Positions 52,337 to 64,000 of a DNA stretch of 64,000 nucleotides are shown here, piece by piece (the first letter of the stretch is position 1; each line of letters opens with the position of its first letter). A model generated the notes under the pieces. That model saw only the letters and a list, made by a program, of their open reading frames with translations, made no database searches and was not told the DNA's origin. This DNA is from a candidate division WOR-3 bacterium. Lineage in GTDB: Bacteria; Hydrothermota; Tepidihabitantia; Tepidihabitantales; Tepidihabitantaceae. The DNA lies in contig CBFGKH010000001.1 in the NCBI GenBank assembly GCA_965649295.1, positions 256,001 to 320,000 on the forward strand. Reading direction: 5' to 3'. The position numbers and the translations under genes are program-made.

Positions 52337-53395
52337 ATGAAGTCCGGCTCCAGCAAGCTCGCCGTTCGTATCGGTTCGCTCACAGTCGGCGGCGGCGCTC
52401 CTGTAGCAGTCCAGTCAATGACCAATACCCGCACCGACGATGTCGCGGCCACCGTACGGCAAGTGCGCCGACTAGTCCGTGCTGGCTGTGAGCTCGTCCG
52501 CATCGCTGTTCCCAATGAGACTGCAGCCCACGCCCTGCCTGAAATCCGCCGTCGCGTTGGGGTTGGGACACCCCTTTGCGCCGATATCCACTTCGACCAC
52601 CGCCTAGCCTTGGCCGCTTTGCGAGCCGGATTCGACAAAGTACGCATCAATCCTGGCAACATTGGCACAAAGGCCAAGGTGAAAGAAATAATCCGACTGG
52701 CAGCCGATTGTGGCGCAGCAATCCGCATCGGCGTCAACTCCGGTTCGATTCACCGCTCAATCCTTAGCCGCCACCATCACCCAACGCCAGCAGCGATGGC
52801 CGAAAGCATGGCCCGCTGTCTCGAACCTTTTGAGGAACTCGATTTCCGCAACATCGTCCTTTCGGCCAAAGGTACCGACGTACTCCAGACGATTGAGGTC
52901 AATCGCGAACTGGCCCGGCGCTGGCCTTATCCCCTTCACCTCGGCCTCACCGAGGCCGGCTTGCTCATCCCCGGTGTCATCCGTTCAGCCGCCGCCCTCA
53001 GTGTACTGCTCCTGGAGGGTATCGGCGATACCATTCGGTTCTCACTTACTGCCGATCCAGTCCTGGAGGTTCGGGCCGCCTGGCACCTGTTGACTGCCCT
53101 CGGTCTGCGTCGGCGCGGACCGCAAATCTACTCCTGCCCCACTTGTGGTCGCACGCAGATTGACGTTGCCCGACTAGCCCGGCAGGTCGAGCAAGCACTT
53201 GCCGACACCCAAGCTCCGGTCAAGATTGCGGTTATGGGCTGTGTAGTCAACGGACCGGGTGAGGCACGGGAGGCCGATTTCGGTATCGCCGGTGGTCGCG
53301 GCCGGGGCGTACTCTTTGCTCGTGGCAGGCCCATCAAGACCTGCCCGGAGTCACAACTCGTCCAGGAACTAGTAGCGCTCGTCAGCTGCGATTGA
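52337..53395 (+). CDS. ispG: (E)-4-hydroxy-3-methylbut-2-enyl-diphosphate synthase
   Basis: VQSMT, ADIHF, RINPGNI, RIGVNSGS, HLGLTEAG, CPTCGR, MGCVVNGPGE. Confidence 0.97.
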   Translation: MKSGSSKLAVRIGSLTVGGGAPVAVQSMTNTRTDDVAATVRQVRRLVRAGCELVRIAVPNETAAHALPEIRRRVGVGTPLCADIHFDHRLALAALRAGFDKVRINPGNIGTKAKVKEIIRLAADCGAAIRIGVNSGSIHRSILSRHHHPTPAAMAESMARCLEPFEELDFRNIVLSAKGTDVLQTIEVNRELARRWPYPLHLGLTEAGLLIPGVIRSAAALSVLLLEGIGDTIRFSLTADPVLEVRAAWHLLTALGLRRRGPQIYSCPTCGRTQIDVARLARQVEQALADTQAPVKIAVMGCVVNGPGEAREADFGIAGGRGRGVLFARGRPIKTCPESQLVQELVALVSCD

Positions 53396-54828
53396 TGCGA
53401 CCGTTGCTCTTCTCGCTAGCACTGACCGGTCTGGCAGCAGCCTGCACTGTCGGTGTCTTCGCTCCCAGCGCCACAGTTTGCGGTCGCCCACTCCTCTGGA
53501 AAAACCGGGACGTGGATAACGACAATCAGGAAGCTGCCTGGCGTCGTGGTTCACGATATGCCTATGTGACCAACGTCTATGGTTCTGGCGATACGCTTGG
53601 GGCCTGGGGTGGCATCAATGAAGTCGGCTTTGCAATCATGAACTCGAACTCCTACAACCTTTCCGGACTTCGTGACGCCGACGACGGCGCCATAATGGCC
53701 GAGGCGCTTGGGTCATGTGCCACGATTGAAGACTTTGCACGGATTCTCGACTCGACCGGCATCATTGGCCGCACCCAGCCAGCAAACTTTGGTGTCTTTG
53801 ACGCCACTGGTCGCGCGGTCTTCTTCGAAGCAGCGAACACGTTCGACACCATGTTCGAAGCCAACACCGACTCACTGGGATTCCTCCTGCGTGCCAACTA
53901 TTCGATGTCAGGTGACACCATCCGCCTACGGGGCAAAAACCGCTATGAACGAGCAATGCAACTAGTACTGCCAGCCCGGCAGGCCAATCGGATTGACGTA
54001 CCATTCCTTGTTCAGACTCTCTCCCGCGACATGGGACAGACAGACTTTGACCCCTATCCGCTTCCCTTCCGTGACTCGCTCCCTAGCTACCGGTTCGGCT
54101 ATATCCCGGCTGATTCAACCATCTGCCGTCGAACCACACGGTCGGTCGAGATAATGGTCGGGCCAGAGCCAGGCGGACCGGCCAGCCGCGGCATGATGTG
54201 GATTCTGCTCGGCGCGCCCGAAGCAGCCTTACCCATTCCACTATGGGTTCAGGGTGGCCCGGTTCCTGAGGCAATGAATGGCCAGTTGCGCTCGCAGATT
54301 TGCGACGCGGCAATACGCGTCCGCGACTTCATTCGCTCTGACCCGCAGCGGCCGACTGCTGTAAACACATTTCGTCTCCATCTTATCCGTTCCAAGCTGG
54401 CGCCGGTGGAGTCAACGCTATTGAGAATGGTCGCCGATTCTGAAGCAGTCTGGCCTTACGGTCCCAGCGCTGACCAAGCCCGGCGTCTCACCGCCACTGC
54501 CTGTGAGCTAGTACTTCAGGCCTATATTGACCTCTGGGATACCCTCAGCCGCTACGAATGGGGTGACAGCTCGTTCCGAGCTGCTCGGCAGACGCCACCA
54601 CCACCGGTCATCGTCCGTAACCTAGTTCAACTGACTTTGCCCGGAGCTGATTGGCAAGGCTCGGTTCGAGTTGCCGATGCGTTCGGTCGTACAGTTGCCG
54701 TTTTCCCAGACTGTCAGGCAGGCTCGACAATCAACTGGGAAACAGCAAGCATCAGCACCGGTAACTACTTCTTCATCTTTCCTACCAAGGCCCGAGTTCC
54801 GACCCACCGCATAACTATAGTTCGCTGA
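53395..54828 (+). CDS. secreted Ntn-hydrolase (peptidase C45-like) with degenerate T9SS-like C-terminal domain
   Basis: Signal peptide then CT (N-terminal nucleophile), GRPLLWKNRD, GINEVGFAIMN, NFGVFDA; tail DAFGR...GNYFF...RITIVR. Confidence 0.75.
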   Translation: MRPLLFSLALTGLAAACTVGVFAPSATVCGRPLLWKNRDVDNDNQEAAWRRGSRYAYVTNVYGSGDTLGAWGGINEVGFAIMNSNSYNLSGLRDADDGAIMAEALGSCATIEDFARILDSTGIIGRTQPANFGVFDATGRAVFFEAANTFDTMFEANTDSLGFLLRANYSMSGDTIRLRGKNRYERAMQLVLPARQANRIDVPFLVQTLSRDMGQTDFDPYPLPFRDSLPSYRFGYIPADSTICRRTTRSVEIMVGPEPGGPASRGMMWILLGAPEAALPIPLWVQGGPVPEAMNGQLRSQICDAAIRVRDFIRSDPQRPTAVNTFRLHLIRSKLAPVESTLLRMVADSEAVWPYGPSADQARRLTATACELVLQAYIDLWDTLSRYEWGDSSFRAARQTPPPPVIVRNLVQLTLPGADWQGSVRVADAFGRTVAVFPDCQAGSTINWETASISTGNYFFIFPTKARVPTHRITIVR

Positions 54829-55585
54829 ACAAGGCCGCGCCCAGCGCTGCCGACAGCAGTGGCTGCTCCGCCGCAGTCACGGGCAGACCGAACGCTGACT
54901 CCAGCTCGGCGCGCATTGCCGGATTCTGCGCCACCCCGCCGGTGAAGACCACCGGCGGCTCGACATGCAACCGAGCTGCCATGTTGGCTATGCGCCGGGC
55001 CAGGGCTGCGTGCAGACCCGCAATGATATCGCCAACCGGCGTATCCGCGGCCAGCAGCGAGAGTATCTCCGACTCGGCCATCACGACACAAAGGCTCGAT
55101 ATCGGCACTGGCCGTTGCGAATCAAGCGCCAACCGACCGAAATCGGCAAGCGGCACCGCCAAGGTCCTCGCCATGACTGACAGGAACTGTCCGGTACCGG
55201 CTGCGCAGCGGTCATTCATTACAAAGTCGCGCACCCGACCATTTTCATCCAGCACCAACACCTTTGAGTCCTGACCGCCAATGTCAACTATTGTCCGACA
55301 CTCCGGATACAGAAACCTGATACCCAGTGCTGCGGCCTTGATCTCGGTTATCGTTCTAGTGGCAGCATAAACAGTATTCCGGGCGTAGCCGGTGGCAACA
55401 ACCATCCCAATCCTGTCGGCCAGTTCGGGATGCTCGACCCGACACCGCTCTTGCAACCGGGCAGCGGTCTCACGCGGTCGTGGTCCGGTTGGCTCTACCA
55501 GCGTACAGATGGTTTGACCGGTCTGGCGGTCAAGGACGACAAGCTTGGTGTTTACCGAACCAACATCAATTCCGGCAACTATCAT
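54815..55585 (-). CDS. acyl-CoA dehydratase activase (HgdC/BadF-like ASKHA ATPase with [4Fe-4S])
   Basis: GIDVGS, ATGYAR, DIGGQDSK, MNDRCAAGTG, SSLCVVMAESE, TGGVA; ATGA-coupled start at 55585. Confidence 0.92.
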   Translation of the reverse strand: MIVAGIDVGSVNTKLVVLDRQTGQTICTLVEPTGPRPRETAARLQERCRVEHPELADRIGMVVATGYARNTVYAATRTITEIKAAALGIRFLYPECRTIVDIGGQDSKVLVLDENGRVRDFVMNDRCAAGTGQFLSVMARTLAVPLADFGRLALDSQRPVPISSLCVVMAESEILSLLAADTPVGDIIAGLHAALARRIANMAARLHVEPPVVFTGGVAQNPAMRAELESAFGLPVTAAEQPLLSAALGAALFSEL

Positions 55586-56646
55586 CGTTGACCTCCGACC
55601 TTCCTCCAACCCGGCCAAGCATCGTTCCGACCGACCTCTTTCGCGACGGCAACAAATGCCTGAACGTTCTCGAACGGAGTGTCAATCGGCACTTCGCAGC
55701 CAGTCGCAGCCACGAACCCTTTCGGACACCTTTGTCCCTGCTCAACCATCTCCGCAACCGCAGTTCCTATCTCCTGCTCTGTCCCCAGCAGGATGTCGCT
55801 CGTGCTCAGATTGCCGACAATCCGCACCCGTTCGCCAACGAGGGCAACTGCTTCCGAGATTTGGAGCCGGTCAATACTCACTAGGTCAGCCCCGGTATCA
55901 GGCATCAGCGCGACTATCGAGCCGGTATCACCGCAGATATGAAGCACGATGTCAAGGTCGTAACGGTGAAGATAGTTGATAACTTGCTTCTCCCAGGGCA
56001 GAGCAAACTCCCGATACTGCTCAGCCGAGATGACGCTACCAGAGGCCAGCGGGTCAACCAGCACCGGCAATCCTCCCGCGCCGATTATCGCCCGACAGAG
56101 ACTGATGCATGACTTGCTCGCGTAGGCAAGTAGCTCGTGCACCTGTTCGGGCATGGTCAGCAAGCCGGTAAGAAACGCCTCTTGGTCCACCAACTGCTGG
56201 GCGGTGGTGAATGGTGCCGGCACGTAGGCGACGATCGGTACCGTATCGCCACGAGCCTCATAGGCATAGCTGATGGCATCGAGATAGACACGCAGGCGGC
56301 CATCGTGCCATGGATCAACTACCGCGTCATCAGCATTTCCGAGATCGTTCCACTTCGGCCGGTCGAGTAGCGGCAGGTCGTCATCAGGATAGTAGTATCT
56401 AGAACCCAATGCTTCAGCGACAAGTCCGACCTCGGAAAAGAACGTAATGAAGTCAATGCCGTATCGCTCTTGGGCCAAAAGCTGACAACGTGCCATCACA
56501 TCGCCCTGGGTATAGTAGTCGCGGATGGGCGTACCGGCAACGCGGGCGGCGTGAGCGGTGACCAGCGGATAGACCGGCACCCGGTCCTGCGGCTCGTCAA
56601 TTACCAGCAGGCCGAAGCGCTCGCGGGGAGTCAATGGCTCACGCAT
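55582..56646 (-). CDS. UroD-fold methylcobamide-dependent methyltransferase (MtaA/CmuA-like)
   Basis: DRVPVYP, AEALG, PFTTA, Zn motif LHICG...GCEVP..TP.EN. Confidence 0.85.
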   Translation of the reverse strand: MREPLTPRERFGLLVIDEPQDRVPVYPLVTAHAARVAGTPIRDYYTQGDVMARCQLLAQERYGIDFITFFSEVGLVAEALGSRYYYPDDDLPLLDRPKWNDLGNADDAVVDPWHDGRLRVYLDAISYAYEARGDTVPIVAYVPAPFTTAQQLVDQEAFLTGLLTMPEQVHELLAYASKSCISLCRAIIGAGGLPVLVDPLASGSVISAEQYREFALPWEKQVINYLHRYDLDIVLHICGDTGSIVALMPDTGADLVSIDRLQISEAVALVGERVRIVGNLSTSDILLGTEQEIGTAVAEMVEQGQRCPKGFVAATGCEVPIDTPFENVQAFVAVAKEVGRNDAWPGWRKVGGQR

Positions 56647-56649
56647 CTC

Positions 56650-58044
56650 TCACCTCCGGCTTCTCAAGACCTCCAGAAACGCATCAATCCTCGTCTGCAA
56701 TTGGCGGTCAACCTCCCGGGCTGGCGGCGCGACATCAAACTCGAGAACCGGCAGACCGAGTTCCTGCTTTACCTGTTCGGCAATCAGGCCTGACTCCATC
56801 GCACAATGCGACCCGCCAAAGACATTGGCGATGATCACGCCCTCGGCTCGATTCTCTCGCGCCTGTTCGATAATCCGGGATGTGCGCTGTCGCGAAGTAC
56901 CGATAAGCGACGCCTGCATAAACGACTCAGCAATCGCTGGCAGGGGTGGCTTTGTCTCGTCGATAATCGCCAGCGCCTGATTAATGACATACTCGGTGCC
57001 GACTACCCGCGCGCCGGCATCCTCCACATAGGTCAATAGCAGAGGTTCGGCCGGTGGCGTAACCCAGACAAGCCGCAACGCATCAGGCGAGAGCGGCCGC
57101 TGCCCCGTCCTGACTCTTTCCTCGGCAGTTGCCACTAGGTGCTCGAGCACACTGGACCACTCACCGATGTCGGAGTAGTAGTGGAGGTTACCAAACTCAA
57201 TGACCATCATCTCGAGCGCTGGCAGCGCCGCATTGCGGTAACCAAGCTCTCGCAATCGAGAGACAAGTCGGCGCACACGGTTAGCTCGACGTACGCCCGC
57301 TCGCAGCTCATCCTGAGTCAACCGATGACAGGTTAGCTCCTCAAGCCGAGTAATAACACGCTCGTACTCTGCCACCAGCAACCTGACCGCTGCCTCGGTA
57401 TCAGCCTGCGCTTCGCCTGTCGCAATCCGACATTCCCGCCGCATCGGCTCCTCAACCCACACGACTTCGCTAGCAATGTCCGCCACCAGTTGCTCGACGC
57501 CAGAAAAGTCATCACAGGACGCACCCGTCGAGGCAATCACCAGTTCGGGGTCTGGGAAATAGGCATGCTTAGCAAAGGCTCCCAGCGCAGCCCGCGAGAA
57601 ACAGGTTCCCTCGCCGATGCCAAGTTCAGCCGCCGCATCGAACAGCACCTTCGACTCCATTACAAACGGAGTCCACCAAATGCAGTCAGGGTAGAACGCT
57701 ACACAATCGGGAAATGAGTTCACGATAACCGGCAATGCCCCAAGATCACCCATCGTTGCAATGACCCGGCGGCCAAGCTGCCTGGCCCGAAACAACCGCT
57801 CTGTCTCATTCTGAACAAATCCCCACAGCCGCAGCGCCGCCAGGGAATTATCGAACCGAAGCCGCCGCAGGTGCCGCATACCGTAGATGGCAAAAGTTTG
57901 GGGTGGAAATAGATACTTAGAGAATCCTTCCTGGTTCGGAGGAAAGTAGTGGTAACGCTCAATCAGCTCATCCGGCACTCGCTCAAATAGCTCCTGCCAT
58001 TCAGCAAACCCAATTCGCTTCGGCTCTGGATCTATCCAGCCCAT
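56650..58044 (-). CDS. 2-hydroxyacyl-CoA dehydratase family (HgdA/B-like) Fe-S protein
   Basis: TCF, ASCDD, SHC cysteines; LGLPVLEFD...TRIDAFLE C-terminus. Confidence 0.8.
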   Translation of the reverse strand: MGWIDPEPKRIGFAEWQELFERVPDELIERYHYFPPNQEGFSKYLFPPQTFAIYGMRHLRRLRFDNSLAALRLWGFVQNETERLFRARQLGRRVIATMGDLGALPVIVNSFPDCVAFYPDCIWWTPFVMESKVLFDAAAELGIGEGTCFSRAALGAFAKHAYFPDPELVIASTGASCDDFSGVEQLVADIASEVVWVEEPMRRECRIATGEAQADTEAAVRLLVAEYERVITRLEELTCHRLTQDELRAGVRRANRVRRLVSRLRELGYRNAALPALEMMVIEFGNLHYYSDIGEWSSVLEHLVATAEERVRTGQRPLSPDALRLVWVTPPAEPLLLTYVEDAGARVVGTEYVINQALAIIDETKPPLPAIAESFMQASLIGTSRQRTSRIIEQARENRAEGVIIANVFGGSHCAMESGLIAEQVKQELGLPVLEFDVAPPAREVDRQLQTRIDAFLEVLRSRR

Positions 58045-58060
58045 CAGGTCCTACCCTTGC

Positions 58061-59149
58061 TCACAACATCTCCAGAAATGCCTCAACCCGGGTGCGCACC
58101 TGCTCCCGGTTCTCCTGCGAGTAGTCAGTATCGAGGTGGAGCACGGGCAGACCGACAGCAGTCTTCAACCGCTTCGCCTCGAAGTTCCAAGGGTCGCAGT
58201 AAAGCAGAGTCTTGTACACAATCCCCAGTACCTGCCGCGCCCGGGCCAGCCGACGGATATAGTCGTAAAGGCCGTCGTTCGGCCGACGGAAAGCACAAGG
58301 AACCCGGCAGTAGTAACCAGCGGCCAGACCCTCCATTGGGTCCGGCGTAATCGGAACGTCATCGGCATACGAACGACTGCCGGTGCAGAGGAAGTCGGCA
58401 ACGATATTCGCCTGCTGTTCGATCAATTCCAGTAGCCAGCGATCCTCAACGGCGAGGATGCTACCGCCGATCATCAGCCGCGGCACGTGTCCAAACAAAA
58501 CCCGCTGCTCGCTCGGCAGGGCCTTCAACATCTCAACCGCCCGTTCTGGCGCTAGTAGCCAAGCCAGAGCTACAAGGTCAAGCAAACGGCGCTGACTTGG
58601 CCCGGTCACAACTGACCGTCGCTCGTCAAGTTCCCGTAGCACTGCCCGCAGTTGATTGTAACTGACCGTCGCGGCTCGGATTGACTCATCACTTGCCCGG
58701 ATGCCGGTGAGGCTAGCCAGCTCAAGCCGTAGCTGTTCGAGCTGACGCCGAAACTCAGCCAGCCGCTGGGGCAGCGGCTCACTCGTGCGTGGCAGATAGA
58801 CCTGCAGCACCGGCCGGCCGAAATAGCGCTCGATTGACTCTGGCAGTCGCCGCATCATGTCGCAGGTATTGACAGCAACGACCGCATCGGTCAATCGGTA
58901 CAGCGGATCGAGCTCAAATCCACCCAAACAGCTCTTGCAAAAAGAACACGCATCAGCTCGCAGGTATTTGCTGCCGACCAGTTCTGCGGAGTAGCTACCA
59001 TGTTCAAGTCGCACCGGTATTGCGCCGGCCGCCGCAATCAACTCCACCGGCGCGTAGTTGCACAGATAGCCGATGACCTTCCCTCCCTGGCCGCGCGACC
59101 CTTCAATCTCAGCCAATCGCTGAGTTCGCAACTCGACTAGTCTGTCCAT
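58061..59149 (-). CDS. 2-hydroxyacyl-CoA dehydratase family protein, cysteine-rich (double-cubane-like)
   Basis: IGYLCNYAPVELIAAAG, CSFCKSC, NTCD, LCTG, VPCA, YCD, DTDYS...TRVEAFLEML. Confidence 0.85.
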   Translation of the reverse strand: MDRLVELRTQRLAEIEGSRGQGGKVIGYLCNYAPVELIAAAGAIPVRLEHGSYSAELVGSKYLRADACSFCKSCLGGFELDPLYRLTDAVVAVNTCDMMRRLPESIERYFGRPVLQVYLPRTSEPLPQRLAEFRRQLEQLRLELASLTGIRASDESIRAATVSYNQLRAVLRELDERRSVVTGPSQRRLLDLVALAWLLAPERAVEMLKALPSEQRVLFGHVPRLMIGGSILAVEDRWLLELIEQQANIVADFLCTGSRSYADDVPITPDPMEGLAAGYYCRVPCAFRRPNDGLYDYIRRLARARQVLGIVYKTLLYCDPWNFEAKRLKTAVGLPVLHLDTDYSQENREQVRTRVEAFLEML

Positions 59150-60522
59150 GGCTCCAGACTCATTCCATCAACAAACACCGTCTCAAACCTAGGGTCCTCC
59201 GCTAGTAACAACTCGCTGCACTGCTCGGCCAGCCTCTCGCTCAGCTGTAACCGGTCTGGACTGAGCGCTGCCTGCACCGCCCCGCGCAGAGCCAAGTTCC
59301 CATGCTGCCGCACTCGGTCAAGCGACAGAGTCGGCAGCAGGCCAATTGCCATTGCCGAACGCGGATTCAGCGCCGCTCCAAACTTGCCGGTGACATGCAG
59401 CCGGTAGATATCTGCCACCCGCGCACCCCACTCTCGAAGGAGCAACCGGACAGCAGCCATAATCGCGCCCTTAGCCAGTTGCACCGCCCGCAAATCATCC
59501 TGACTCAAGAAGACATGCCGGCCCAGTTCGAGTCGGCCGGCCCTGACTCTGCCTGATCGGTTAATCAGTCCCAAGCGCAGCCCACAGGCCACTGCATCGA
59601 CCACCCCTGAACCGCAGATGCTCCTGGGCTCGCTCTGACCGACAACACTAGCTACCAGTCGCCCCCCTCGTATCGCTACCGCCCTGATTGCTCCGCGTAT
59701 AGCAAGACTGCCGCACGCAAGCGTTGCCCCCTCAAATGCCGGCCCGGCCGCCGTCGAGCAGACAAGCAACCGCTCACAATTGCCTATTACCACCTCACCG
59801 TTGGTGCCGGCATCAATAAGCAATCCCAGTCGCCGACTACGCCAGATTCCTGATGCCAGTATTGCCGCAGTGCAGTCGCTGCCCACAAAGCTGCCCAGCA
59901 AAGGCAGTATCCGCAGCCGCAGACCACCGGCCGCAAACCGCAGCACTCTTTTGAGTGGCAGTCTTGAGCGATAAGGGTACTCGCCGAGGCTCGCCGGACT
60001 CTTCCGGGCGAGAAAATGCGCCATCACCGTGTTCCCAACCGCGACCAGCTCCTGTCTGCGGCTCACCCCATGACCTTCGGCAAATCCGGCGATCAACTTA
60101 TGCAGCCCGGCTTTCATCGCCCTAGCCCCGGCCCTAATCCGGCTCATCACATCTGCTCCGAATGGTAACTGAGGGTTGAGAGCATCCTGCCGGGCAACAA
60201 TCCTACCCGACTCACTATCTACGACCGCAAGAGCGACCGTCGTCGTGCCGACATCAGCGACAAGCTTGCGCGACACACCCGCGTATTGGCGTCTTGACTG
60301 TCGTGTCCTAGTGTTGGCGACGGCTGGTCTCACCCCGCTGACTTTCACCACTTCTGTCGGGACGTACCGGCACGCGAACACTCGGCGAGTGCCAGTCGAA
60401 TCGGTGACAGTGACGCGGCACTTGCCACAAGTACCGGCGCCACCGCAGTCCGACGTAACGCGCACACCCCGTTCCTGCAGCAGCCGCAGCAACGTCTGCC
60501 TGGCCCTCGGCACAATCCTCAC
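59137..60522 (-). CDS. ATP-dependent reductive activator of corrinoid proteins (RACo/RamA-like; 2Fe-2S plus ASKHA)
   Basis: CGGAGTCGKC...AC, DVGTTT, NPQ..FGADVMSRI, GNTVM, FVGSD, DAGTNGE, TAAGPAFEG, CGSG, QLAKGAI. Confidence 0.88.
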   Translation of the reverse strand: MRIVPRARQTLLRLLQERGVRVTSDCGGAGTCGKCRVTVTDSTGTRRVFACRYVPTEVVKVSGVRPAVANTRTRQSRRQYAGVSRKLVADVGTTTVALAVVDSESGRIVARQDALNPQLPFGADVMSRIRAGARAMKAGLHKLIAGFAEGHGVSRRQELVAVGNTVMAHFLARKSPASLGEYPYRSRLPLKRVLRFAAGGLRLRILPLLGSFVGSDCTAAILASGIWRSRRLGLLIDAGTNGEVVIGNCERLLVCSTAAGPAFEGATLACGSLAIRGAIRAVAIRGGRLVASVVGQSEPRSICGSGVVDAVACGLRLGLINRSGRVRAGRLELGRHVFLSQDDLRAVQLAKGAIMAAVRLLLREWGARVADIYRLHVTGKFGAALNPRSAMAIGLLPTLSLDRVRQHGNLALRGAVQAALSPDRLQLSERLAEQCSELLLAEDPRFETVFVDGMSLEPWTD

Positions 60523-61541
60523 TGCACCGTCTGCCCTTTGTTACCTTCGGACTGCTCCTCCCGCCCTGCCGCCACAACCGCCTGCACGTTCTCCTTCGGC
60601 GTGTCCGGCGGCACGTCGCAGCTCGTCGAGAGCAACAGGTTCGGCCCGCCAGTGGCAAGACACAGCCGAGCCGCGGCGGTCACTTGGTCGGCACTGCCCT
60701 GTAGCAACAGGTGAGTGGAGACATTACCCATCAGAACAATACCTGGGCCGACTTCAGCCCGGACCCATTCCAGGTCCATCTCATCCAGACTCAGTAGGTC
60801 GGCTCGCGTCGCGACCATTTGCTTCAGGATGTGCCGAGTTTCACCACAGATGTGCAGGCCACAGCGACTGCCGTTCTCGTGGATAGCAGCAACGAGCTGG
60901 GCAAGACCAGGCTGGGCGAACTCACGGAAAATGCTCGAACCGACCATGCTACCAGAAGCCACCGGATCACCGATAAATGGCACACCACCGGCTTTGATGA
61001 TTGCCTCAGCGTAGCGCACCTGGTTCTCAAGCGCCAGCCGGAGAAACTCCCGGGCCCGCTCCGGATTGTCAATCAAATCCGCAAGAAAGCCCTCAATACC
61101 ACGCAGAAAAGACGCAAGCGAGAACGGGCCCTTGAGCGATACCAGCACCGGTGCCTCACCGTTGAGCAGTTTCGTTAGCCGACGCGTCGTCTCGAGCACC
61201 ACTGGCATGCGGCCATCCTTTTCTGGCTCGGCCGGCTCCAGCTTCGACACGCGGGGCGGTTCGAGCAGAAACGGGTCGTCGTCTTCGGGGATGATTATCT
61301 GGGCACCCATCGCCTCAGCCTCGACCATTGTGTCGGTAAAGACCATCACCAGGTCGTAGCCATAGTACCGATACGCTGCATAGAGCACCCGGCTCAGTAC
61401 GTCCGCGTCCGTCACCGCTTCCGCTATTGAGTAACCTTCAAGCCGTGCCGCATGATTAGCCACGACCATCGGAAACACAACCGGTGCATCCGGCTTCTCG
61501 CCGCGCAACAGTTGGGCAAACCGCTTTGCCTTGTCCTTCAT
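60519..61541 (-). CDS. second UroD-fold methylcobamide-dependent methyltransferase (MtaA/CmuA-like)
   Basis: VEAEAMG, DGRMPVVLE, GPFSLA, LHICGE...SCDVP.DTP.EN. Confidence 0.85.
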   Translation of the reverse strand: MKDKAKRFAQLLRGEKPDAPVVFPMVVANHAARLEGYSIAEAVTDADVLSRVLYAAYRYYGYDLVMVFTDTMVEAEAMGAQIIIPEDDDPFLLEPPRVSKLEPAEPEKDGRMPVVLETTRRLTKLLNGEAPVLVSLKGPFSLASFLRGIEGFLADLIDNPERAREFLRLALENQVRYAEAIIKAGGVPFIGDPVASGSMVGSSIFREFAQPGLAQLVAAIHENGSRCGLHICGETRHILKQMVATRADLLSLDEMDLEWVRAEVGPGIVLMGNVSTHLLLQGSADQVTAAARLCLATGGPNLLLSTSCDVPPDTPKENVQAVVAAGREEQSEGNKGQTVQ

Positions 61542-61658
61542 CAGCCTCGTGACCTTGTAACGGCTCTCATCTTTGTATCTTGGTGCTCGTGACAGTTCTT
61601 CCTTTGCCCGAACCCACCAGCGCCCTTCTTCGTGCCCTCGTCTCCTTCGTGATTTGTC

Positions 61659-62306
61659 CTAAGTCTCGCTGACCAGACGTTCGACTTCCCGCACTGCCGC
61701 GTAGGCATCGGCTGCATAGCCATCAGCACCAATCCGGCGAGCAAACTCAGCCGTGACTGGCGCACCGCCGACAATCACCCGCACCTGCTGCCGCAACCCG
61801 GCTTTGTCCAGCAGTTCGATGACCTTCCCCATCTTTGGCATCGTCGTTGTCATCAGCGACGACATCCCCAGCACCGCTGCACCGTACTCGCTAGCTGCCT
61901 TCACAAAACCATCGAGAAACACGTTGCGACCAAGGTCAATGACCTCAAACCCGGCTGCCTGCACCATCACCTTGACGATATTCTTGCCAATATCGTGGAT
62001 ATCGCCCTGCACCACACCCAGAATTACCCGGCCCCGGCTCTGAGGAAGCGCGCCGATATGCTCTTTCAGGATGTCGAACCCGGCGTACATCGCCCGCGAT
62101 GCAAGCAATACTTCCGGCACAAAACACTCCTTCGCCGCGTAGCGCTCACCCATTCGGCGCATTCCAACAGCAAGGCCATTAGTGATGGCATCCTGCGGCG
62201 ATAGCCCCAGTTGAATTACCCGGTGGGCAAGTTCGACCACTCGCTCGGGCTTCATCGCCACCACTGCCTCGGCCAGTTGCCCAAATAGGGGATGATTCTC
62301 ACTCAT
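61659..62306 (-). CDS. corrinoid (B12-binding) protein, MtaC/MttC-like
   Basis: Cap FVPEVLLA; DIHDIGKNIV; SSLMTTT; VGGAPV; GADGY. Confidence 0.93.
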   Translation of the reverse strand: MSENHPLFGQLAEAVVAMKPERVVELAHRVIQLGLSPQDAITNGLAVGMRRMGERYAAKECFVPEVLLASRAMYAGFDILKEHIGALPQSRGRVILGVVQGDIHDIGKNIVKVMVQAAGFEVIDLGRNVFLDGFVKAASEYGAAVLGMSSLMTTTMPKMGKVIELLDKAGLRQQVRVIVGGAPVTAEFARRIGADGYAADAYAAVREVERLVSET

Positions 62307-62351: not shown

Positions 62352-63386
62352 CTAGCAAACCTGTAGCCGCCCATTGCCCACAACCACCTCACCGATGACA
62401 GTCGCCGCCTCAACTCCCCTGGTCAGCAGTCGGTCTAGCAACCTGTCCTTACGTTCAGCAGCCACTGCCATCAATAGCCCGCCCGCAGTCTGCGCGTCAC
62501 AGAGCAGTAGGCGTAGCTCTTCGGTAACCCCAGCAGCGAAATCTGCCCGCTCACGAATAAAACTGTAGTTCTTCAGCGACCCGACTGGAAAGAGACTCTG
62601 CCTGGCCAGCTCAATTGCTTCGGCAATAATCGGGACCCGGTCAGCATGAATGAGAATATCTATCCCTCCGCTCTGAGCCATCTCCCAGGCATGACCAAGG
62701 AGACCGAATCCGGTAACATCGGTGGCGGCGTTCACGCCGACCTCAACCATTACAGCCGCGGCAGTACGATTGAGCTGAGACATCACCCGGTTGGCCGCGG
62801 CTACCGCTTCTCGCGAAGCCAGGTTCGCCCGTAGCGCAGTTGTAATAATGCCAATGCCGAGCGGTTTGGTAAGGATGAGGACGTCCCCAGGGTTTGCCCC
62901 AACGTTCCGGACAACCCGGTCGGGGTGCACCAGCCCGGTCACTGCCAGACCGCACTTCACCTCCGAGTCCTTTAGAGTATGGCCGCCGGCAATCACCGCC
63001 CCAGCCTCGCGCACCTTGTCCCTCACGCCAGCAAGAATGGCACGGATAGTCTCGTGCCCAATCTCACCGACCGGAAAGGCAATGATGTTCAAGGCAACAA
63101 CTGGCCTGCCGCCCATCGCATAGACGTCAGAAAGCGAGTTCGCCGCCGCAATCTGACCGAAGACGTAAGGATCGTCGGCAATCGGCGTCAACACGTCCAC
63201 AGTGAGCACCAGTGCCAATTCGTCGGCAACCCGATAGACCCCGGCGTCATCTGCTGTCTCGCCGCCAACCAGCAGCCGCGGGTCAGTGAACTCAGGAAGC
63301 TGCTGCAGTACCTGCATCAGGTCTTCCTGACAGACCTTGGCCGCTCAGCCGGCAGCCCGCGCATAGTCAATAAGGCGACGCTTCAT
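62352..63386 (-). CDS. selD: selenide, water dikinase (selenophosphate synthetase), selenoprotein with Sec at codon 14
   Basis: GAGGAG RBS; ATG 63386 gives MKRRLIDYARAAG-UGA-AAKV in frame with DDAGVY, NSLSDVYAMGG, GGHT, TDVTGFGL, DAQTAGGLL. Confidence 0.93.
63312..63337 (-). promoter_or_regulatory. candidate bacterial SECIS hairpin just after the selD UGA
   Basis: mRNA AGGUCUGUCAGGAAGACCUGAUGCAG starts 8 nt after the UGA; folds as UCAGG-AAGA-CCUGA or AGGUCU-GUCAGGA-AGACCU. Confidence 0.55.
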
Positions 63387-63417: not shown

Positions 63418-63999
63418 CTAGAGTACGACGAGCTGTTCGCCAGCTAGTAGCGTCCCGGCCAACTCATACATATTGGAGACCGTGCCAACTCGAACCCGCT
63501 CCTTTGCTCCGAAGTAGTCAAGGCACGTCCCGCACGCCTTGATTGTCACACCGGCAGCTTCAAGAGTCTGCAGAGACTGCAGTTGGTCCGAGCCATCCAA
63601 GGCCAACTTCACGCCGCTATTTATGAGCAGCAGGTACGCTGGCCGCGTCGGTAGTTCGTTCAATGTCCGCAAGAATAGCGTCATCAGCAGACGGCCAAGT
63701 TCACGATCGCCCCGACCAAACTCGTCTGAGCTGATAACCAGCACGCGACCCTTGCGCTCCGCTGACTGCTGCTGGCTCGCACCCGGGCAGATGCTGACAA
63801 CATAACAGCCCGGCTCGCGCTCTGACCACGAAACCTGGCACCCGGCACCTTGGGCAAAGCGTACGATGTTGTCCCGTGACTCCGGACTGTCAGTCAGCAC
63901 GGCGATTGTCTCACCCTTGTGCGCTGCCAGTGCCCGCTTCGTCAGCACGATCGGTTCTGGGCAGACGAGTCCGCGAACGTCAACCTCGATTGTGACCAC
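63418..63999 (-). CDS. yedF: sulfurtransferase-like selenium metabolism protein YedF (TusA + DsrE domains); start at window edge
   Basis: DVRGLVCPEP; FGRGDRELG.LLM..F; CGTCLDYF; VSNMYE; upstream of selD. Confidence 0.85.
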   Translation of the reverse strand: MVTIEVDVRGLVCPEPIVLTKRALAAHKGETIAVLTDSPESRDNIVRFAQGAGCQVSWSEREPGCYVVSICPGASQQQSAERKGRVLVISSDEFGRGDRELGRLLMTLFLRTLNELPTRPAYLLLINSGVKLALDGSDQLQSLQTLEAAGVTIKACGTCLDYFGAKERVRVGTVSNMYELAGTLLAGEQLVVL

Positions 64000-64000
64000 G

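Follow-up and report, generated by a model that had tools for sequence, protein, structure and literature searches.

A conserved reductase and methyltransferase unit linked to selenium genes in a WOR-3 bacterium and other uncultured lineages, with a possible role in methyl-selenium salvage

The DNA analysed here (the window; 64,000 nucleotides) is positions 256001-320000 of contig CBFGKH010000001.1 (C1) in the genome of a candidate division WOR-3 bacterium (G000; assembly GCA_965649295.1), whose marker completeness is 100%. GC content is uniform along the window. Open reading frame (ORF) calls and domain profile searches place seven co-oriented minus-strand ORFs at 54815-62306, and yedF and selD sit immediately upstream of the first of them, a corrinoid gene. 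An original prediction, made from the sequence alone, had described this cluster as a corrinoid methyl-transfer module combined with an ATP-driven reductase. The ORFs and their families (B12-binding, URO-D twice, RACo, HGD-D twice, activase) are as predicted, and both upstream genes score above the cut-offs of their models. A further core gene, encoding a class I S-adenosylmethionine (SAM) methyltransferase, lies past the window end. The genes are as follows, in window positions unless a contig is named.

63418..64000, minus strand: yedF-type selenium metabolism protein (TusA and DsrE domains; TIGR03527, 184.5 bits, cut-off 110), a flanking gene
62352..63386, minus strand: selD, selenophosphate synthetase, a selenoprotein (TIGR00476, above cut-off)
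61659..62306, minus strand: corrinoid protein (PF02310 and PF02607; DxHxxG motif, residues 102-107)
60519..61541, minus strand: MT1, UroD-fold methyltransferase with a His-Cys-Cys site (URO-D domain match)
59137..60522, minus strand: RACo-type corrinoid activator with N-terminal 2Fe-2S cysteines (RACo domain match)
58061..59149, minus strand: beta subunit, 362 aa, HGD-D (alignment to 6eno; NF040772, 193.7 bits, cut-off 350)
56650..58044, minus strand: HADx, 464 aa, HGD-D with an N-terminal extension (residue conservation and structure model)
55582..56646, minus strand: MT2, UroD-fold methyltransferase with a His-Cys-Cys site (Mlp2 is its nearest reference); it forms the core of the corrinoid module
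54815..55585, minus strand: HgdC/DCCP-R-type ATP-dependent activase (C127, C166; TIGR00241, 225 bits, cut-off 125.4; BcrAD_BadFG/CoA_E_activ)
G000:C1:328012-328803, minus strand: class I SAM methyltransferase, a core part of the system located past the window end, some 8 kb upstream of yedF

From the corrinoid gene to the activase gene, the intergenic gaps are 117, -4, -13, 16, 3, and -4 bp; the activase most likely starts at 55585. Scans for promoters and terminators gave signals at or below chance level. Gene order is preserved among relatives at 26-79% identity, indicating that the arrangement is more than chance. The selD gene starts at 63386 and contains an in-frame TGA at codon 14, which encodes selenocysteine (AG-U-AAK by read-through) and is also present in relatives. 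YedF is likely a selenide carrier. The genome also encodes selA, selB, a second selD, and tRNA-Sec; the second selD adjoins selB (G000:C1:355292-358247), about 36 kb from the first.

To describe conservation, we use three sets of sequences. The first comprises 40 loci taken from around the strong matches to HADx in 60 relatives; several of the loci stop at contig ends. A corrinoid or MT2 gene is present in all 40 loci, and all seven genes are present in 24. The second is an evenly drawn sample of 201 genomes of the phylum, where kin are not independent and counts are inflated by kinship; HADx and MT2 are found in the same 56 genomes. The third is a GTDB scan of 80 loci (the best 80 of 236 HADx stretches, some repeating earlier contigs) from WOR-3-like bacteria, KSB1, Calditrichota, Zixibacteria, Electryoneota, Planctomycetota, Lentisphaerota, Kiritimatiellota, Verrucomicrobiota, Hydrogenedentota, Sumerlaeota, Acidoferrum, and Anaerolineales. 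By gene content, 48 of these loci are type A, with the corrinoid module, 29 are type B, without it, and three contain HADx alone. A canonical double-cubane cluster protein (DCCP) is encoded in 23 of the 29 type B loci and in none of the 48 type A loci, two of which have a more distant one. With our query, type B genomes have no MT2 orthologue (best match 24-34%), and the three lone-HADx genomes have one elsewhere (44-46%). Since 29 loci hold the reductase without corrinoid genes, the two halves are not obligate partners; within the phylum, their co-conservation is supported (56 of 56). Types A and B form sister clades on the HADx tree, and the exchange between them therefore counts as one contrast.

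The SAM methyltransferase, which the original prediction overlooked, recurs in 50 of the 80 loci. It occurs in both architectures and adjoins the reductase in 24 of the 29 type B loci. In the phylum sample it is present in 54 of 56 HADx genomes and in none of the 145 others, including patchy losses within genera, and it is the most conserved member of the system (58-89% within the phylum). It is a core gene and a steadier partner of the reductase than the corrinoid half. Because the 29 loci without the corrinoid module, 23 of them with a canonical DCCP, are still linked to selA, the conserved unit is the SAM methyltransferase plus the reductase, with either the corrinoid module or a canonical DCCP as exchangeable partner.

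The selenium link noted in the original prediction is supported. In the phylum sample, selA is present in 54 of 56 HADx carriers, compared with 26 of 145 non-carriers, and it is present in 46 of 50 carriers from groups outside the phylum; a figure of 21.5% is quoted for bacteria at large (PMC10418091). At least one of selA, selB, and selD lies within the fetched DNA at 26 of the 80 loci, and at 14 of the 29 type B loci. Although kinship inflates the counts, both architectures show the link, and it is seen in different phyla.

The two UroD-fold enzymes are the only URO-D genes in the genome. The zinc motif (HxC...C) read from both is invariant: residues H230, C232, and C308 of MT1 in 43 of 43 non-redundant orthologues, and residues H236, C238, and C317 of MT2 in 48 of 48. 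Such a His-Cys-Cys site marks S/Se methyltransferases (PMC10418091), in agreement with the earlier reading of MT1 and MT2 as thiol- or selenol-type enzymes. In mlp clusters, ClMlp2 methylates selenide from methylcobalamin with a KM of 79.8 uM, and sulfide 4.3-fold slower (PMC10418091); the Fig. 5 legend of that paper gives DCCP and DCCPR as accessory genes of mlp clusters. Regarding SdmABC of Methanococcus, SdmC is required for dimethylselenide use (PMC11097638). The methyl-transfer half of the pathway that the original prediction called uncharacterised thus has a described counterpart.

As reference we used the mlp cluster of Acetoanaerobium noterae (a species listed in PMC10418091), labelled by gene order and widened by 77 metagenome loci found with its Mlp2, and spanning only its closer relatives. 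MT2 matches Mlp2 best (29.5%, 191 bits, versus 94 bits for Mlp3) and MT1 matches an auxiliary Mlp best, the reference identities for both being 28-30%. In a quick tree of 83 rows, reduced to 24 rows for MT1 and 24 for MT2, the two form separate clades of their own outside the sampled Mlp1, Mlp2, and Mlp3. MT2 lies nearest the Mlp2 side. Approximately unbiased (AU) topology tests retain an MT2+Mlp2 grouping (p-AU 0.37 and 0.059) and reject an MT2+Mlp3 grouping (p = 0.033); MT1 as a distant sister of Mlp3 is also retained (p-AU 0.07), with a support of 87 when Mlp1 is left out. By the definition of an mlp gene cluster of Kountz & Balskus (PMC10418091), the gene content agrees, no tetrahydrofolate methylase was found within 20 kb, and the zinc site characteristic of type 1 is present; the spacing limit of 2 kb is exceeded by 490 bp, as 2,490 bp (beta and HADx) separate RACo (59137) from MT2 (56646).

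The locus shares with type 1 mlp clusters and SdmABC two His-Cys-Cys UroD-fold methyltransferases, a corrinoid protein, RACE, the lack of a folate methyltransferase, and selenium genes close by; some mlp clusters carry DCCP/DCCPR. It differs from type 1 clusters in the separate clades of MT1 and MT2, in its reductase, predicted to be an invariable heterodimer that includes a new subunit, and in its core SAM methyltransferase. No HADx was found on the gene maps for the collected type 1 loci over 8 kb. WOR-3 is absent from the organism table of PMC10418091, whose Fig. 5 maps could hold a similar pair. By analogy, the methyl half would resemble an mlp cluster in its working; its type 1 membership is putative. 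An entry filed as an Acetoanaerobium noterae plasmid (NZ_CP154629.1, 2.63 Mb) is chromosome-like; the type 1 mlp cluster that it carries encodes four methyltransferases.

The same zinc site would also suit methyl-sulfur metabolism, with the reductase acting as an analogue of methylthio-alkane reductase, the methyltransferases recycling methanethiol, and the selenium link reflecting lifestyle. Non-selenium mlp clusters do accompany MarHDK-like ATP-driven reductases, and ClMlp2 shows some sulfide activity (PMC10418091). However, carriers of the present system, unlike the non-selenium clusters, nearly always have selA and often lie amid selA, selB, and selD, and no methionine synthase homocysteine domain was found in the genome. 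We therefore consider a sulfur role rather unlikely. Whole-genome searches for MtaB, MttB, and a homocysteine methyltransferase domain found none of these; the sole pterin-binding match, on another contig, is dihydropteroate-synthase-like, to go by a name read from its sequence. The absence of classical partners described in the original prediction is supported.

RACo and MT1 are dispensable in some kin. RACo was not found in four genomes that are 95-99% complete and whose loci are without it (G018, G009, G010, and G019), under a search that found it in the control G005; MT1 was not found in G010 and G019. All four retain the corrinoid protein, MT2, and the reductase, as would be expected if the reductase and the SAM enzyme reactivated or loaded the corrinoid by reductive methylation of Co(II), the operon being a SAM-fed methyl-transfer chain. 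Yet 29 of the 80 loci have neither a corrinoid gene nor a genomic MT2 orthologue, and 24 of these keep the SAM enzyme beside the reductase. Corrinoid reactivation is thus very unlikely to be what the system is for, though it may be a side activity.

The beta subunit aligns to DCCP (E 6e-32), and its cysteines 30, 68, 96, 255, 285, and 318 correspond to the six double-cubane ligand positions of 6eno. It does not have the seventh cysteine of the DCCP motif. With spacing relaxed from the published motif, the seven-cysteine pattern is found in 0 of 89 beta-type rows and in 20 of 25 DCCP-type rows. Low scores are obtained with the DCCP model NF040772 (cut-off 350): 193.7 for beta and 87.6 for HADx, versus 430.6 for a type B protein (L129). 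Beta is predicted to be an electron-transfer subunit with a double cubane. In HADx, the only invariant cysteines are C148, C177, and C414 (47 of 47); D100, D179, H413, and E417 are likewise invariant, and Asp/Glu120, a candidate catalytic acid, is kept in 47 of 47. HADx is predicted to be the catalytic subunit, with one [4Fe-4S] cluster. Its structure model (pLDDT 92.4) matches the folds of BzdN/O, HadB/C, and DCCP about equally (Z 30-36). A profile of its N-terminal region matched no PDB sequence and gave no PDB alignment. HADx is 14-22% identical to every solved relative and, in line with the original prediction, does not fall inside a family of known substrate. It forms a small separate family, with 41 representatives at E up to 1e-30, three of which (P0012, P0020, and P0023) are fused to a DCCP-type domain. 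TGA codons flagged in HADx and beta relatives as possible new selenoproteins are terminal stops, none at a conserved cysteine.

Beta and HADx fit a BzdNO-like pair rather than a canonical DCCP, as judged by cysteine patterns and fusions, the heterodimer and its clusters being predicted. In BzdNO, electrons are transferred through a double cubane, and catalysis takes place at a single cubane that has a free iron (PMC11971306). The predicted likeness to class I benzoyl-CoA reductase covers the double-cubane subunit, the three-cysteine catalytic cubane, and the ATP-driven activator. In contrast to BzdNO, identity is 16-18%, there is a single activase gene, and no aromatic pathway genes were found among the annotated neighbours. 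The pair shares with DCCP/DCCP-R (6eno, 7yyl) the six ligand cysteines, an ASKHA activase, and the lack of a known natural substrate; it differs in the missing seventh cysteine, the score below cut-off, and the pairing with a single-cubane subunit, canonical DCCP being found in type B sister loci only. The natural substrate or function of DCCP is given as unknown in PMC9351452, and that of double-cubane proteins likewise in PMC11971306 and bioRxiv 10.1101/2022.07.06.499078.

The pair also resembles the 2-hydroxyacyl-CoA dehydratases (HgdABC, HadBCI) in fold, three-cysteine catalytic cluster, and activase, and could simply be a radical acyl-CoA dehydratase or reductase of the usual kind, serving amino-acid fermentation, its CoA activation being encoded at another place. 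The heterodimeric relatives of known function use CoA esters (PMC11971306), and the three-cysteine site of HADx is as in HadB and BzdO. Identity to HgdABC and HadBCI is, however, 14-16%, the double-cubane ligands are retained, and scores fall far below the cut-offs of HadC (94.8 versus 700), BzdN (72.6 versus 453.8), BcrC (51.5 versus 421), and BzdQ (146 versus 380). The prediction that the cluster contains no CoA-transferase or 2-hydroxyacid dehydrogenase stands, and no CoA-transferase, ligase, or dehydrogenase was found among the recurrent neighbours annotated from the 80 loci; a family I CoA-transferase is nonetheless present in the genome, on a different contig. As this account also leaves the SAM enzyme unexplained, we regard it as quite unlikely. 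Another activase-like gene occurs at G000:C2:253826-255886, together with two weak matches to HGD-D. A search for glycine reductase B gave no match, but neither did its control, and it allows no conclusion.

The SAM enzyme has the full-length fold of phosphoethanolamine N-methyltransferases (template modelling score 0.83-0.89) and retains the equivalent of their Tyr19. Unlike them, it has Tyr at the position of His132 and many invariant aromatics, at 20-27% identity. These features suggest a pocket that binds an onium or thioether. A literature search returned no paper connecting this SAM family with enzymes that form sulfonium compounds. A look-up in the ESM Atlas returned automatic family names only; SAM methyltransferase-like clusters are listed there for Thermoplasmatota and Fermentibacterota. 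The conservation of this enzyme in both architectures is what one would expect if it trapped or detoxified selenium, capturing selenide as methyl-selenide (for Se/S discrimination or storage) while the reductase acted on diselenides and the like, and ferredoxin-thioredoxin-reductase-like genes or SelD fusions recur nearby. Diselenide reduction has no need of ATP-driven potentials, however, and the linkage to selenocysteine synthesis fits supply better than disposal, making such a role unlikely.

We propose that the system salvages selenium from methyl-selenium or further organic selenium compounds, feeding SelD. We give selenium supply through methyl-selenium, a reading whose substrate is inferred, a probability of about 0.5. 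It explains most simply why SelD occurs together with a SAM enzyme, a reductase of very low potential, and Se/S-type demethylases, and the HADx-DCCP fusions and the BzdNO precedent for pairs of double cubane and aqua-cubane (PMC11971306) support it. The SAM enzyme would methylate a selenium centre to give a methyl-selenide or selenonium. The activase, using ATP, would drive low-potential electrons via the double cubane of beta to the open-iron [4Fe-4S] cluster of HADx, which would cleave the C-Se bond without a CoA ester. The zinc enzyme MT2, with MT1 where present, would transfer methyls from (di)methyl-selenide to the corrinoid protein, as Mlp2 and SdmC do. Because no folate or homocysteine acceptor was found in the genome, the methyl would have to be passed to a thiol or sulfide or be reductively removed. 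Selenide would then enter YedF/SelD and, as selenophosphate, selenocysteine. In the type B lineage, canonical DCCP would replace the corrinoid step. This exact order of steps is doubtful.

Several observations weigh against selenium salvage. Within the phylum, 26 selA genomes do without the system, and at 54 of the 80 loci, many of them cut off by a contig end, the fetched DNA contains no sel gene. The His-Cys-Cys site does not tell S from Se enzymes, and MT2, with roughly 30% identity to Mlp2, falls outside the sampled Mlp2 clade. The partner exchange between types A and B rests on a single evolutionary split. Most type B beta subunits keep three cysteines only, and the extra DCCP could be accounted for almost equally by their loss of the second cubane; against that account stand several type A loci that have a three-cysteine beta but in which no canonical DCCP is seen, and L117, which has both. 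Methylation and demethylation by enzymes of a single system might amount to a futile cycle, and the substrates of the proteins are putative, assigned from sequence. The predicted coupling of ATP-driven reduction to thiol or selenol (de)methylation is partly supported: the selenium link and the absence of classical partners are borne out, an obligate pairing of the halves is not.

If beta/HADx were an ATP-driven methyl-selenide or methyl-corrinoid reductase, methane would arise without methyl-coenzyme M reductase, and the DCCP of the sister lineage would be a reductive methyl-selenide demethylase. We think this improbable; if true, it would reveal what double-cubane proteins naturally act on and give the dehydratase/benzoyl-CoA reductase family a CoA-independent, C-Se-cleaving branch. 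Independently of it, the system is real and conserved and links a double-cubane/single-cubane pair, a SAM methyltransferase, and a corrinoid module or canonical DCCP to selenocysteine synthesis in about a dozen uncultured lineages. Part of the picture, mlp clusters with DCCP accessory genes, is already in print; this gene set was not found described in the literature searched, a search that subscription papers lay outside. The candidate substrates are narrowed to a limited set of methyl- and alkyl-selenium compounds, suitable for assay with recombinant proteins, which makes the natural role of the double-cubane enzyme family directly testable. Selenium salvage, if right, would explain how anaerobes of sulfide-rich habitats acquire selenium and possibly reveal a trace methane route.

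Between yedF and the SAM methyltransferase gene lies an ABC transporter (G000:C1:325136-327900; L001:7037-9900, minus strand) that resembles SaoA/SaoP/SaoX below cut-off. It is possibly an importer of selenium compounds: its binding protein occurs in 20 of the 201 phylum genomes, and all but one of these 20 also have selA (19). Present in only 12 of 56 carriers, and in 8 non-carriers, the transporter was rejected as a core member. Its subunits score best against the SaoA/SaoP/SaoX or sulfonate models, DCCPs are linked to and co-occur with the selenoprotein-rich SAO system (Haft & Gwadz, bioRxiv 10.1101/2022.07.06.499078), and there are weak matches to ArsM models, as might be expected if the locus turned over methyl-arsenic or methyl-mercury, akin to the SAO hypothesis. 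All such scores are below cut-off, however (SaoA 254 versus 360 and SaoP 156 versus 295, both in related loci; SaoX 47 versus 300, in G000), and the nine-gene SAO set is not present. The sparse distribution of the binding protein and the lack of a MerB-like gene among the annotated neighbours also argue against organometal(loid) chemistry, which we consider highly improbable.

Other genes were noted near these loci. One, upstream of yedF at G000:C1:323966-324235, is a free-standing FtrB-like gene; it was rejected as a new selenoprotein, its tandem TGA being unconserved. In L089 (minus strand, about 1570-2885), a Cys-rich domain like ferredoxin-thioredoxin reductase beta reads through a selenocysteine codon into SelD, and in L129 (12060-13235, plus strand) a cysteine-rich extension precedes SelD. 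A convergent gene at window positions 53392-54828 (plus strand) has a weak Ntn-hydrolase-like match (PF03417, below cut-off); close kin retain it downstream, together with ispG and murA, and it is probably unrelated. A NapH-like 4Fe-4S protein is encoded in 13 of the 29 type B loci (for example L136:14163-15044), and a small hydrophobic protein just ahead of the corrinoid gene in 11 of the 48 type A loci (for example L089:5224-5640).

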